The notes under the pieces: model-generated
What the model saw: only the letters and a program-made list of their open reading frames with translations
What the model was told of the DNA's origin: nothing
Database searches by the model: none
Origin: Eledone cirrhosa
Lineage: Eukaryota
NCBI GenBank assembly: GCA_964016885.1
Contig: OZ024751.1
Span: forward strand, 13,888,001-13,952,000
Length of the DNA stretch: 64,000 bases
Reading direction: 5' to 3'
Program-made: the position numbers and the translations under genes
Shown: positions 26,288 to 46,617 of the stretch, one piece after another
How positions within the stretch are numbered: position 1 is the first letter of the stretch
How the letters are laid out: each line of letters begins with the position of its first letter

Positions 26288-28725
26288 AGAAAGATTTGAA
26301 TGGATACAGTTTAGTTGAAAGGAATTTATTGACACGTGTTTCTATAACAGTTACATAACCTAAAACAGCTATCTACAAACTTTTAGTTATGCAGACATTC
26401 AATATTTCAATGTTATTATTTACTGTCATTTCATCAGAATAATATTACTGAGGACCTATTTAGTTTTTATAGAGAATATTAGGAGGGAGGGGTGAAGTTG
26501 TTAGAAGAATAGTTGAAGGAGTGGTTTTTCGATAGCAGTGAGAATTCTTGGTGGCAGTGAGTAATTAGATTCCCATCTGTTGTTTTGACATTTTTTATAG
26601 AATATATTATTGGTTATTTTTCTAAATCTATAGAAGGATTAGAGATAGTAAAGATATGCGTGGTTGGTTTTGTGTTTGCACTTAATTAACATTCAGACTT
26701 AAATTTTTCTTTCAAGTGTACGTATCCTTTCACCCACGCATTCACACACAAATATATTTGCACACCTCTACAAAATACATATACTCACAATTCACATATT
26801 CATACTTACATATATATACACATGCATACACATATATATACACACATGTATTCATGTACATACATACGCGCTCATGTGTAAACATTTTCATACTCAACTT
26901 ATCTTTATATACACACGTATAGACACACTCATATATACATACATACTCTAGTCTATGTGTACACACATACACATACTTACACATCCATATACACATATAT
27001 ACATACATATATATATATATATATACATATACATATATATATATATATATATATATATATATATATATACATACACATATACATACACATACATATACAC
27101 ACATATACATACACATATATATATAAGCACTTTAATACATGAATACACTTACATCTAACTATACACATCAAACATATATATATATTTACTTATTTATATA
27201 CATTTTCTCATATATATACATACTTATGGACGTTTTTAGACACATTCATTATCGCATATTTGTACCTATTCTCATCAGCATATCTTTTCATTATTAGTAT
27301 GGTAATTTAAGGTTATTAATATATGTTGAGAAGAGATTGTTTTCATATTTTTCTAACTAGATTAAGGTTTATATAGTTGGGGGATGTCCCTCTTTTATGT
27401 AATATTCGGCTTGTAGTGGGAAAAAAGGGTTTTAGTTCTGTGACGGCAGAATAATGTTCGTTCAATTCTGTTATTCAGCAGTTTTTTCCCACTACAAGCC
27501 GAATATTACATAAAAGAGGGACATCCCCCAACTATATAAACCTTAATCTAGTTAGAAAAATATAAAAACAATCTCTTCTCAACATATATTAATAACCTTA
27601 AATTACCATACTAATAATGAAAAGATATGCTGATGAGAATAGGTACAAATATGCGATAATGAATGTGTCTAAAAACGTCCATAAGTATGTATATATATGA
27701 GAAAATGTATATAAATAAGTAAATATATATATATGTTTGATGTGTATAGTTAGATGTAAGTGTATTCATGTATTAAAGTGCTTATATATATATGTGTATG
27801 TATATGTGTGTATATGTATGTGTATGTATATGTGTATGTATATATATATATATATATATATATATATATGTATATGTATATATATATATATATGTATGTA
27901 TATATGTGTATATGGATGTGTAAGTATGTGTATGTGTGTACACATAGACTAGAGTATGTATGTATATATGAGTGTGTCTATACGTGTGTATATAAAGATA
28001 AGTTGAGTATGAAAATGTATACACATGAGCGCGTATGTATGTACATGAATACATGTGTGTATATATATGTGTATGCATGTGTATATATATGTAAGTATGA
28101 ATATGTGAATTGTGAGTATATGTATTTTGTAGAGGTGTGCAAATATATTTGTGTGTGAATGCGTGGGTGAAAGGATACGTACACTTGAAAGAAAAATTTA
28201 AGTCTGAATGTTAATTAAGTGCAAACACAAAACCAACCACGCATATCTTTACTATCTCTAATCCTTCTATAGATTTAGAAAAATAACCAATAATATATTC
28301 TATAAAAAATGTCAAAACAACAGATGGGAATCTAATTACTCACTGCCACCAAGAATTCTCACTGCTATCGAAAAACCACTCCTTCAACTATTCTTCTAAC
28401 AACTTCACCCCTCCCTCCTAATATTCTCTATAAAAACTAAATAGGTCCTCAGTAATATTATTCTGATGAAATGACAGTAAATAATAACATTGAAATATTG
28501 AATGTCTGCATAACTAAAAGTTTGTAGATAGCTGTTTTAGGTTATGTAACTGTTATAGAAACACGTGTCAATAAATTCCTTTCAACTAAACTGTATCCAT
28601 TCAAATCTTTCTATTTTTCTCCGGATTACTTTTGGAACTACAACTGGAACCGCCGAGCAAACTCTACGTGAGCTGATAATCTACTGTGTGTAATATTTAT
28701 ATTACAACACAACGGAAAATACTGT
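26288..28725. mobile_element. Fold-back PLE 3' end (family A): ~1.13-kb inverted arms, 55-bp spacer, tail on + arm only
   Basis: 26288-27426 is the reverse complement of 27482-28613 and is near-identical to 34347-35491. HHRs at 26326-26442 (-) and 28458-28574 (+). Confidence 0.92.
28458..28574 (+). ncRNA. Hammerhead with 88-nt stem II domain (family A); copies at 26326-26442 (-) and 34386-34502 (-)
   Basis: ttatt CTGATGA a atgacagt...actgttat a GAAA cacgtg TC aataa; palindromic ACACGTGT and a GUC cleavage triplet. Confidence 0.85.
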
Positions 28726-29944
28726 ATATATACATATATATATACATATATATTCATATATATATACATATATACATGCATATCTACATATATATATATA
28801 TATTTATATATATATATATACACATATATACATATATACACATATATACATATATATATATATATATATACATATATACACATATATATATATATATACA
28901 TATATACACATATATATATATATATACATATTTATACATATATATACAAATATATACATATATATATATATATATATATATATATATATATATGCATATG
29001 TATATATATACATATATATATATACATATATATATATATATACATATATACATATATATATATATATACATATATACATATATATATATATATACATACA
29101 TATATATATATATATATATTTAGCTTCGCTTATTACTGCTATATATATATATACATATATTCATATATATATATACATATATTCATATATATATATATAT
29201 ATATATATATATATATATATACATACATATATATATGTTTAGCTTCGTTTATTACTGCTATATATATATATACATATATTCATGTATATATATATATACA
29301 TATATTCATATATATATATATATATATACATATATTCATATATATATATATATACATATATTCATATATATATATATATACATATATACATATATATATA
29401 TATATATATACACATATATATATATATACACATATATATATATATACACATATATATATATACACACATATATATATATATATATACACACATATATATA
29501 TATACACATATATATATATATATATATACACATATATATATATATACACATATATATATATATACACATATATATATATACACACATATATATATATATA
29601 CACATATATATATACACATATATATATATATATACACACATATATATATATATATATACATATATATATATATATATATATATATACACATATATATATA
29701 TATATATATATATACATATATATATATATATATATATATATATATATACACATATATATATATATATATATATATATACATATATATATACACATATATA
29801 TATATATATATATATATATATACATATATATATATATATACATATATATATACATATATATATATACATACATATATATATATTTATATATACATATATA
29901 TATATATATATATATATATATATATATATATATATATATATATA

Positions 29945-31250
29945 ATGAAAAATTGAACAGGGACAGAACAGAGAGGCAGTACGACAAATGTTTATTAAAT
30001 TCACGCTCAGGAGAGTGGGGGGTAGGTGGGGGACGACGTTTCGGGCATAAGCCCTTCTTCAGGTGAGAGTTCAAAAGGTGTGTAGGGGAGCGGTGGAGAG
30101 ACATATAGCGAAAGGAAACGGTGCGAATGAAAAATTAACAAATAAAGACAAAAATATAATAAATAATAAATAAAAATAAAGCATGATCAAAATACAAGGA
30201 ATGAGAAAATTTAAAAATAAAGGCATGATCAAAATAAACTGAAATTAAAAGGGGGGGTAAACAGGTGGTGGAAGGGTGTGGGGTGAGTAGAGGTGGTGGC
30301 GGGTGGAGTGGGGAGAGGGAGACGGGGTGTCCGAGCGGGGAGGGCTGAAGGTGGTGTGTGTGGTTAGGTGTGCGTGTGTGTGTGTGTGTGTGTGTGAAAG
30401 TGAGGGTTGGGGGAAGAACGGGGTTGCATGTTCAGGAAGGTGTGTGTGGGGGGTGTTTTTGTGGGTCGGAGGGTCTGTGCGTGTGTGGATAGGGGGTGGG
30501 GGGAGAGGAATCAGGGGGCTGAGGGTGTAAATATGTGGTGGGAAGCACGTGTGTGTGGTTTAAGGGTGTTGTGGGCGTGGGTGGCGTGTGGATAAAAAAA
30601 TTTGTTTTGGGGTGTGTGTGTGTGGGTGAGTTATATAGGTGGTGGTGTAAGAGGGTGGATGAAAAGTGGTAAGTTACACGGATGTATGGAGATTTTGGTG
30701 AGAAGTCAAAACGCGTGTGGGTAATCCAAGAAGCGGTGGTCGGAAGAGGAGAGAGGTGGGGTGCGCGCGCAACAGGAAGTGGTCAGCAGTGGAAGTGCTG
30801 TGGTCAGTTGGTGCTGAGACAGTGATCGGAAGGGCATAGCAGCAGTCGGCGGAATGGTAGGGAGGCGAGGATGGGTAGGTGTGAGAGTTGGAGTGAGGAG
30901 GGTGTGTGTGTGTGTGTGTGTGTGTGTGTATTAGTGGGGTGTTAGTGGGATGAGTGAGTGTGGAGCGGGGAGAGAAGAGTGTGTGTGGTTCTATGGAGGG
31001 AGTGTGGTGTACTGGTGTGTGTGTAGTTTGGTGAAGAGGTGTTAGTGGGTGTTAATATACGGAAGGTGGGGAGGGGTGGAATGCAGGTGTGAGTGGGGGT
31101 TAGTGGGGGTAGGGTGTGTAGAGATGGTGGTGTACGAGAGTGTGTGGGTACGTGTGCGTGGGGTTGGAGAGTGTTAGTGATGTTAGTTGCGTGGGGGTGG
31201 GTGGTGTAAGTGGACAATTTGTCAGCATTTTCTATTCCGTTTACCAATAC
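29945..31250 (-). mobile_element. PLE-type 3' UTR/terminus with minimal HHR at about 30033-30064
   Basis: Minus strand: CTGAAGA a gggc-ttat-gccc GAAA cg TC gt. Same type as 2327-2362, with a compensated stem II (ggac/gtcc versus gggc/gccc). The body is G/T-rich low complexity. Confidence 0.65.
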
Positions 31251-45600: not shown

Positions 45601-46462
45601 GTGTGTATTTATTTATATGTCTATATGTATGTATATCGATGTATATTTTATATTTTACTTGTTTGTATATATATATGTATGTGTATGTATATGTGTATAT
45701 ATATATATGTGTGTGTATATGTGTGTGTATATATGTGTATATGTATGTGTATATATATATATATGTGTGTATATATGTGTGTATATATATATGTATATGT
45801 ATATGTGTGTGTGTGTGTATGTGTGGATGTATATATATATATATATATATATTTTCTTGATATATTTCTTTTTTCTTTTTTCTTTTTCTTTTCTTTTTAT
45901 TTCTAAGTTTATAGATACATTTATAAATAGGCAGTCTGCCGAAACCGTTGAATACTGACCTCTCCCCCCCCCCCTCCCACCTAATTTCTGTATCCTGATC
46001 TAAATATGTGTGGCAGTGTTTATGTGCGTGCATTAATGTCCATATGCTTATGATAATACTATATGCACATATATATGTGTGTGGGGGTGTGTGTGTGTAT
46101 GTATGTTCGTAGTTATGTGTATGTTTATGCATATACGCGCGTGTGTGTGTGAGTGTACGAATATGTGTGAGTATATGAATGTGTGTATACATTTATTTCA
46201 TATTTATGTGTCTATACGCATTTTATCTGTAGATTATAAACTTACAGAGACATTAGCCTTGAATTTTTGTATTTACATACATCTTTTTGGCATGCGTATG
46301 CATGTGAACATATATCTTTATGCAAATATGTGTACGAAGTTAATTACATGTATATACACACACCTAACTGCATAAAATTTTTTGTATTTTCATTGGTCAA
46401 TTTGAACTCTGTTCCCAAACGGACCTGAAATTTTGAATTGTTGTTATTATCAATAAATATAT

Positions 46463-46617
46463 TTCATTATTTCTGAAGACGGCATATATATGTGTTTGGT
46501 ATGTATATTTAATTTTGATAGTTTGTATAATTTTGTATAATTTTGTACATAGATCTGTTGAATATGCATGCCAATTCTAACACATATATATCCTAGAAAC
46601 GATCGTTAAATAATGAA
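46463..46617 (+). ncRNA. Hammerhead with 116-nt stem II domain (family D); second copy at 61261-61416 (-)
   Basis: ttcattattt CTGAAGA [tatatatgtgtt...aacacatatata] GAAA cgatcg TT aaataatgaa; perfect 10-bp stem I and palindromic ACGATCGT. Confidence 0.85.

Follow-up and report, generated by a model that had tools for sequence, protein, structure and literature searches.

Abundant hammerhead ribozymes with an enlarged, apparently selected stem II in Hydra-clade Penelope-like elements of Eledone cirrhosa

The 64,000-nt stretch of the Eledone cirrhosa genome analyzed here (GenBank assembly GCA_964016885.1, contig OZ024751.1, positions 13,888,001 to 13,952,000 of the forward strand; "the window", in whose own numbering all positions are given) carries remnants of Penelope-like elements (PLEs) together with predicted hammerhead ribozymes whose stem II is a long interrupted helix. 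Three families, A, B and D, account for seven of these hammerheads (Table 1). The initial annotation had placed seven copies with intact cores, and all seven (A1-A3, B1-B2 and D1-D2) were recovered at those positions. Every copy has the order stem I - CUGANGA - stem II - GAA - 8-nt palindrome - H - stem I'. The cores seen are CUGAUGA, CUGACGA or CUGAAGA with GAAA and GUC or GUU, and in 7/7 copies CUGANGA, GAAA and UH meet at a three-way junction, the arrangement of a type I hammerhead. Stem I is paired (5 bp in A, 4 bp in B, 10 bp in D) and stem II is expanded to 88 nt in A, 90 nt in B and 116 or 117 nt in D, both as first described. The stem II fold energies are -24.1 kcal/mol for A, -25.5 and -25.9 for B and -42.4 and -40.2 for D, with z-scores of -4.6, -3.4/-3.5 and -7.3/-6.5 against 300 dinucleotide shuffles per sequence, no more than 3/300 of which were equally low. 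The three A copies are identical and the two B copies have two differences. A genuine hammerhead fold in the three families is very likely, and self-cleavage is a probable activity. No second hammerhead is nested in stem II, where no intact GAAA/UH with stems occurs, and a functional upstream open reading frame from the AUG at the stem II foot was ruled out (18 aa in A, 23 aa in B, none in D or in the sister family Bl). Local Rfam scans with E up to 10 gave no hammerhead match for A3, B1 or D1 and equally missed a short-stem control at 57517; the Rfam scan of the entire window was dominated by microRNA matches in TA repeats.

The elements that carry these ribozymes are Hydra-clade PLEs, judged by motif, because their open reading frames (ORFs) have the reverse transcriptase (RT) first, an endonuclease (EN) of GIY-YIG type at the C-terminal end, RWK, DKT, CxCx5C, CxxC...CxH and no CCHH finger. 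These features are Hydra-clade diagnostics (PMC8557442; published statements here and below refer to excerpts of the sources). The arrangement is that of a single ORF with RT followed by GIY-YIG; the CxCx5C linker, the absence of CCHH and the CxxC and CxH around the E/N were found in A, B and D. RVRWK was read in a fuller family A copy elsewhere in the genome (L009) and ADKT in family A; the B and D copies have no N-terminus. One Cys lies between GIY and YIG, and an arginine-rich stretch precedes W(Y/F)NP. The initial annotation had called the hosts Naiad-like. A Naiad host is ruled out: the EN is C-terminal, the motif is DKT and not DKA, and the CCHH finger is missing. Pfam matched 0/8 of the ORF pieces. 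The A, B and D hammerheads lie on the sense strand before (TA)n, at a distance of 40-70 nt in copies with a short tail and of 150-210 nt in those with a long tail, and all three families are inserted in (TA)n. In L009 the ORF starts about 210 nt past the cut site, and the link between D hammerhead and ORF was seen in five loci (L001, L096, L098, L197 and L198). A Hydra-EN pattern has 36,315 genome-wide matches against 296 for controls. Metagenome scans with the family A protein found no relative. Near-identical family A sequence occurs in two other organisms, each time in single low-depth contigs, and is too similar to add covariation. The A and B long tails (28610-28717 and 31842-31957) have a common short word directly past the end point of the short tail.

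Table 1. Long-stem hammerheads and associated features in the window (C3 is a core base; cut sites and the RNA start are predicted)
Feature	Positions	Strand	Details
A1 hammerhead, family A	28458..28574	+	stem I 5 bp; C3 28463; stem II 28470-28557 (88 nt)
A1 palindrome	28561-28568	+	predicted cut after C 28569
A1 proximal motif	28486..28543	+	A 28489, partner G ~28540
A1 distal motif site	A 28501	+	imperfect in the 88-nt variant, complete in 4/5 A variants
A2 hammerhead, family A	26326..26442	-	C3 26437; same as A1; predicted cut after 26331
A3 hammerhead, family A	34386..34502	-	C3 34497; same sequence as A1; ~1 kb past ORF stop, 40 nt before (TA)n; run X2 has contigs with clustered A>G/T>C
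Two 5'-truncated family A 3' ends, head-to-head in (TA)n	26291..28717		tails ~40 nt (A2 arm) and ~150 nt (A1 arm)
Family A ORF	35463..37454	-	664 aa, 5'-truncated at TA run; DKT, RT, CxCx5C, C-terminal GIY-YIG, CxxC...CxH
B1 hammerhead, family B	34075..34191	+	C3 34079; stem II 34086-34175 (90 nt); predicted cut after 34187
B1 proximal motif	A at 34104	+	
B2 hammerhead, family B	32000..32116	-	C3 32112; in inverted arm 31842-32304 with long tail
Family B ORF remnant	32309..33655	+	frameshifted, 5'-truncated, Hydra-type EN; 50% aa identity to A over 274 aa
D1 hammerhead, family D	46463..46617	+	stem I 10 bp; core 46473; stem II 46480-46595 (116 nt)
D1 motif	A 46520 / G 46552	+	
D1 predicted cut	after 46607	+	
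D1 long tail	46608..46807	+	208 nt to TA run; family short tails ~60-75 nt
Family D RNA start (inferred)	46466	+	7 nt before C3, as read from where arms end in other copies of the genome
Family D ORF remnant	40714..42618	+	one in-frame stop, Hydra-type; 40% aa identity to A
D2 hammerhead, family D	61261..61416	-	C3 61406; stem II 117 nt; short tail; arm 61207-62102

The long stem II has a conserved internal feature. The families had been described as having no obvious sequence similarity in this region, which is true only superficially: a colinear alignment of A with B is possible, and an internal motif recurs in A, B and D. The motif lies at a helix end and consists of an A opposite G, next any base opposite A, and next a U opposite a pyrimidine (A.G/N.A/U.Y). 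Sites where purine-purine pairs widen the major groove are typical of peptide binding. Defined by eye from the distal site and then scanned, the motif was present in 50/54 stems of the A and D clades (D 31/33, A 5/5, B 4/4, Bl 2/2, Ab 4/4, Ac 2/2, M 2/3, D2 0/1), 1/3 unplaced J and K stems, 0/25 other long stems and 0/45 stems of 20-71 nt. Controls gave 1/82 reverse complements, 1/82 reversed sequences and 0-6% of shuffles. Six stems have the motif doubled, 11-12 nt apart. The second, proximal copy, not used in the definition, was found in A and Bl and is the sole copy scored in B. Loci added later had the motif in 13/14 stems, including three new families. When 20 D sequences were compared with four of D2 and M, identity was 0.91 and 0.90 for the motif strands, 0.35-0.51 for the helices, 0.24 for the apex and 0.98 for the core with stem III; the 3' untranslated regions (UTRs) of the same groups were alignable only at simple repeats. 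One copy (L242) has a flank change from UUG/CAA to UCG/CGA with the motif kept. The stem II domain is very probably under selection. Against consensus structures, two known motif identities were rejected. A selenocysteine insertion sequence has an AUGA-N/NGA-N quartet, a helix II of 11-12 bp and an in-frame UGA; D can be read as UGAU/AGAU, without the preceding A and the helix length, and the 664-aa frame of A is without UGA. A kink-turn has tandem G.A after a bulge on a C-stem; the A-clade stems are without the second GA.

Absence of covariation in the long stem II had been named at the outset as grounds for giving up the interpretation; covariation was found, both in A, B and Bl and in an unrelated branched family, G. 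Across ten A, B and Bl sequences two-sided changes occur at 6/8 basal stem II pairs and 3/4 stem I pairs, and 93.8% of cells are paired versus 23-46% with slid partners, the cells representing three families and not ten events. In 15 copies of family G five pairs have two-sided changes, and 0/500 shuffles reach the score, which is inflated by relatedness. An RNAalifold consensus of the D alignment was misregistered through AT-repeat helices and was not used. Stem III covaries as well. The 8-nt palindromes are perfect and differ among A, B and D, as the initial annotation had noted, and the long-stem families together have at least eight different perfect palindromes and a few imperfect ones (Ac with G.U, K with U.U). 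Stem III has 2 bp as a monomer and 8 bp as a dimer. Joined through the palindrome, an active dimer has an energy 11-15 kcal/mol lower than that of two active monomers, and the unconstrained minimum free energy (MFE) is lower by a further 3-6 kcal/mol. Dimer-cleaving PLE hammerheads were reportedly described by Lunse et al. in 2017. Palindromic stem III is already known (PMC4209133; PMC3088659, Fig. S8 legend).

Two branched families and one Hydra family were observed beside these. Family G (L032-L058) has a three-way branched stem II of 83-88 nt with covariation, and six copies have no ORF within 6 kb. Family N (L051 and L180) has a branched stem II of 95 nt too, with the palindrome switched; neither G nor N has a linked ORF in the loci examined. 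A Hydra family (L011, L149 and L182) combines a U3-A8 core and a 54-nt stem II with a stem III hairpin of about 19 nt that could fold as a monomer.

The long-stem hammerheads are abundant. Copies were counted as core-pattern matches in the 3.0-Gb host genome against reversed-pattern controls. Patterns with a 77-107-nt domain gave 8,480 matches versus 64 controls, those with a 106-136-nt domain 8,595 versus 1,086, and those with a 60-90-nt domain and other loops 1,905 versus 213. After subtraction of controls and small overlaps, about 16,000-17,000 long-stem copies exist genome-wide. A search for U3-A8 cores was noisy (17,555 versus 3,347), many matches being internal to D or unrelated; such core variants arose in both long-stem clades, in the M and Ac families (L082, L083, L178, L179 and L242-L251).

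Hammerheads were linked to EN sequences by locus, four links being read by eye from single families, and an unrooted EN tree of 28 rows was built after 10 of 38 had been dropped (three frameshift-scrambled or wrongly picked, seven near-duplicates). An A clade (A, B, Bl, Ab and Ac; stem II 75-91 nt) has Shimodaira-Hasegawa (SH) support of 100 and a D clade (D and M; 95-126 nt) SH 98. The remaining Hydra families have a stem II of 12-54 nt, except P6 (98 nt, weak fold), and the F-side clade has 26-36 nt. A joint A and D clade is neither supported nor rejected (approximately unbiased test, p-AU 0.134), and parsimony needs three changes. The single long-stem lineage originally proposed is not supported as such; there are two strong clades plus unrelated branched long stems. 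Since every length from 11 to 126 nt occurs in the genome, the long stems stand at the upper end of a continuum. Within clades, however, length varies little, and the A-clade families keep 75-91 nt though EN identity among them is only 43-60%. In the window, the family F hammerheads (6000-6049, 19731-19779, 39157-39206 and 55102-55151) have a stem II of 30-31 nt with a C.C mismatch and are linked to a Hydra ORF at 7493-8887, a remnant with a 113-bp internal inverted duplication (8486-8885).

Family D also offers a view of its RNA. Genome-wide, about 1,070 loci (2,135 strand matches) consist of two D hammerheads head-to-head with a gap of 0-30 nt; gaps of 31-61 nt have 99 strand matches at about 50 loci, many of them stutters of the same junction. 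In the 43 of 46 loci that were parsed, 81/86 arm ends stop 4-7 nt before C3, 44 of them exactly at 7, and five extend further. The arms run through the cut site, so that uncut RNA appears to have been copied. The first untemplated base after a 7-nt arm is G in 9/19 cases (p 0.001 at background G, 0.15 at one third), and in 649 copies G replaces the templated C. Copying of a cap is expected to leave an extra G. From the fixed edge and the extra G, position -7 is read as the RNA start: family D RNA likely begins, capped, 7 nt before C3. The corresponding upstream truncation analysis of A and B was confounded by indels. D junctions often have short templated stutters, like end-joining of two run-off cDNAs.

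Close relatives of these elements have been described. The Hydra clade of Craig et al. 2021 (e.g. Hydra-1_Obim) is alike in domain order, RWK, DKT, CxCx5C, absence of CCHH, CxxC/CxH and (TA)n, and also in its sense-strand type I hammerhead near the 3' end and its inverted truncated arm with an optional tail; it differs from the elements here, which have a stem II of 75-126 nt with a conserved internal motif (PMC8557442). PLE hammerheads have been published as minimal, as the initial annotation had noted: all Hydra rows of File S2 have a stem II of 3-7 bp with a 3-10-nt loop, at most about 26 nt, and the longest entries are non-Hydra rows flagged as deviating, such as PLE-X1_sMoe with 9 bp and a 35-nt loop (PMC8557442). 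The arm described here is more than three times as long as that of the published relatives. The published descriptor of Cervera and De la Pena 2014 has the same limits as those Hydra rows (PMC4209133), and the suspicion that pattern searches miss the long-stem ribozymes was borne out. The metazoan PLE hammerheads of Cervera and De la Pena 2014 likewise have a short or palindromic helix III implying dimers, a short helix I and an unpaired base at the foot of helix II, but their "larger than usual" helix II has 7-8 bp, compared with about 30-40 interrupted bp here, where 10.1-11.1 is not G-C (PMC4209133). The "long helix II" of PMC13725137 is 6 bp. The literature search, outside which most subscription papers and several supplementary alignments fell, found no description of a 75-126-nt stem II in PLE hammerheads. 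Naiad PLEs resemble the present elements in (TA)n preference and two-armed insertions and differ in an N-terminal EN with CCHH, in DKA and in having no canonical hammerhead (PMC8557442). Animal non-LTR (long terminal repeat) retrozymes have type I hammerheads with a palindromic loop III, and ORF-less relatives of this kind here are family G and a 310-bp array; A, B and D differ as ends of protein-coding elements (PMC7229834; bioRxiv 10.64898/2026.07.22.740005). Non-LTR retrozymes, tandem non-coding hammerhead units, were ruled out for A, B and D, which follow ORFs. The A, B and D ribozymes are, on the sequence comparisons above, an abundant new variant of PLE hammerhead in Hydra-clade elements, with an enlarged arm that bears evidence of selection.

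A mechanism can be proposed, to which a probability of about 50% is assigned: a dimer-cleaving hammerhead in the 5' leader whose stem II docks the element's own RT-endonuclease. By prediction, the type I hammerheads in the terminal repeats cut only when two of them pair as a dimer through the palindrome of their family. The 75-126-nt stem II would be a conserved appended RNA domain, likely docking the RT-endonuclease; for the element protein as the partner the odds are roughly even. The initial suggestion of a protein-binding or regulatory domain draws indirect support from the conserved internal motif. In family D the ribozyme would form the first 140 nt of the capped RNA. Protein on the irregular patch would chaperone the pairing of two RNAs through stem III. 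Two-armed insertions would arise when uncut, paired RNA is copied from two tail start sites into both target strands. Cleavage would take the cap and the long hairpin from the RNA, altering its translation or decay. Parts of this have parallels. Poseidon_Ac (Frangieh et al. 2024) uses uncut RNA as template, has two tail lengths per family, can extend both target strands and needs the protein for cleavage; it belongs to another clade, and its small stem II overlaps the ORF start, unlike family A, whose ORF begins about 210 nt past the cut site (PMC11167929). The Anolis PLE hammerhead is assisted by protein, and uncut RNA serves there as the chief template, copied from two internal starts; cleavage was dispensable in vitro (Frangieh 2024; PMC11167929). 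A more sweeping form of the proposal, held only tentatively, would make these ribozymes an overlooked widespread class in which stem II is a modular ribonucleoprotein (RNP) domain, the patch, single or repeated one helical turn apart, is read by the element's own telomerase-like protein, the ribozyme is a capped 5' leader, and the palindrome both loads two RNAs and gates cleavage.

Several observations weigh against the docking proposal. The canonical G10.1-C11.1 closing pair is absent, being A.A in A and C.A in B and D; natural hammerheads with a 10.1-11.1 mismatch (U.U) do exist (PMC3088659). The nearest-neighbour MFE is 4.6 (A1) and 3.7 (B1) kcal/mol below the active monomer, and stem I of Bl is weak in both copies examined. 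The motif was defined after the distal site had been seen, so its count of 50/54 is partly circular; the three new families among the later 13/14 were chosen by eye, so that test was not blind; and the identity contrast between D and D2/M comes from a MAFFT alignment that may misalign helices. In family B the motif also allows another reading, in a shifted Watson-Crick register. A stem can be long without the motif, which is missing from the long stems of G, N and P6. The search pattern for head-to-head arms is blind to arms shorter than 4 nt, and the -7 edge is family-specific, family A having only 14 such loci. Loci in which both arms stop at the cut site are few (about 10/29), and stem I homology can account for 37 loci with cut-site edges; on these counts a strong footprint of cleavage in the genome was rejected.

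Other functions for the long helix were weighed. The conserved loop could be a tertiary module between RNAs: by docking on stem I, on the tail or on the partner ribozyme it would replace the usual loop I-loop II contact and speed dimeric cleavage without protein. Stem I-II contacts do speed hammerheads (PMC3088659), the D-clade motif is conserved as the core is, and its distance from the core is fairly fixed within each clade. That distance however differs between clades, about 29-35 nt in A and 39-44 nt in D; no conserved partner loop was seen on stem I, which is short and has an open end; and a contact some 30 bp up stem II would be out of reach of a 4-10 bp stem I in the monomer. Such a module is unlikely. 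Less probable again is tolerated expansion, in which stem II grew by slippage and duplication, helicity alone was selected and the motif was kept by descent. The length continuum fits it, as do an apex that varies freely and includes 10-nt duplications (L117), the origin of long stems in at least three places on the tree (three changes), and a doubled A-clade motif that resembles module duplication; descent alone sits poorly with a motif about 0.9 identical between flanking helices at 0.35-0.51, in elements whose 3' UTRs can no longer be aligned, and with the length held at 75-91 nt across the A-clade families despite their EN divergence.

Host machinery and transcription provide two further readings, both improbable. 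The helix might mainly serve the host double-stranded RNA machinery (ADAR editing) or block cap-dependent scanning until cleavage, the -7 edge then being RT fall-off or exonuclease stalling at a stable stem. The hotspot lies in the family with the most stable stems (D -42 versus A -24 kcal/mol), and self-cleavage in a 5' UTR can drive cap-independent translation (PMC13725137). In sequencing run X2 (88 million letters of contigs) 13 A>G/T>C sites missing from X3 cluster within the A3 hammerhead, all in 34389-34463; 0/97 A/T positions changed in the comparable flank, and in two loose ends 7/8 and 8/9 T read as C. The pattern looks like hyper-editing of both strands, seen in 3-5 contigs of a run of unrecorded kind. 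X2 is however not recorded as RNA, the sites come from so few contigs that they are non-independent, both strands are changed, and a contig with heavy changes falls outside the ribozyme. An edge fixed to one base, with an extra G, is better accounted for by a capped start than by a stall. Slightly more remote is a DNA-level internal promoter element downstream of the -7 start, with the RNA helix secondary. If D RNA starts just before the core, stem II DNA would lie at about +15 to +130; the D start context TCA+1TT presumably resembles the initiator consensus, and the D motif strand TGATA(G/A) is presumably a GATA-like site. Penelope has an internal promoter in its 5' region (PMC8557442). Against this reading, the A-clade motif flanks covary as base pairs, the two motif halves lie 20-55 nt apart with variable spacing, and the A-clade stems have no GATA-like word in common.

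The window contains other features. Two inverted arrays at 55304-59572 (6.5 and 7.3 copies) are built of a 310-bp non-coding, retrozyme-like unit with a short hammerhead (14-nt stem II, 6-nt palindrome). A short non-coding element with a 14-nt stem II hammerhead lies at 22057-23100 as a head-to-head pair plus a tandem copy, and is present in L063, L178 and L184. At 3618 (-) and 3824-4525 (-) there is a Neptune-like EN remnant that has CCHH and, after it, a short hammerhead of canonical form, and more short hammerheads lie at 2358, 30062 and 15935. A frameshifted non-LTR element at 9095-13334 (-), with ORF1, an APE endonuclease and RT, is presumably CR1/L2-like by its motifs. Tandem 131-bp and 196-bp units of a repeat like a short interspersed element occur at 1-952 and 50435-50614.

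Craig et al. 2021 called the function of PLE hammerheads unclear (PMC8557442). If true, the reading of stem II as a modular RNP domain would give these ribozymes a concrete function. Stem II offers a natural RNA domain whose sharply conserved 6-nt patch is open to mutation with the core left intact, the family-specific palindromes suit swap tests, and over a thousand genomic insertions would map the 5' end of family D RNA to one base. About 1,070 near-perfect inverted insertions, with some 200 bp per arm, would supply double-stranded RNA for editing. In this host genome hammerhead counts made with the published descriptor are too low by at least 16,000.

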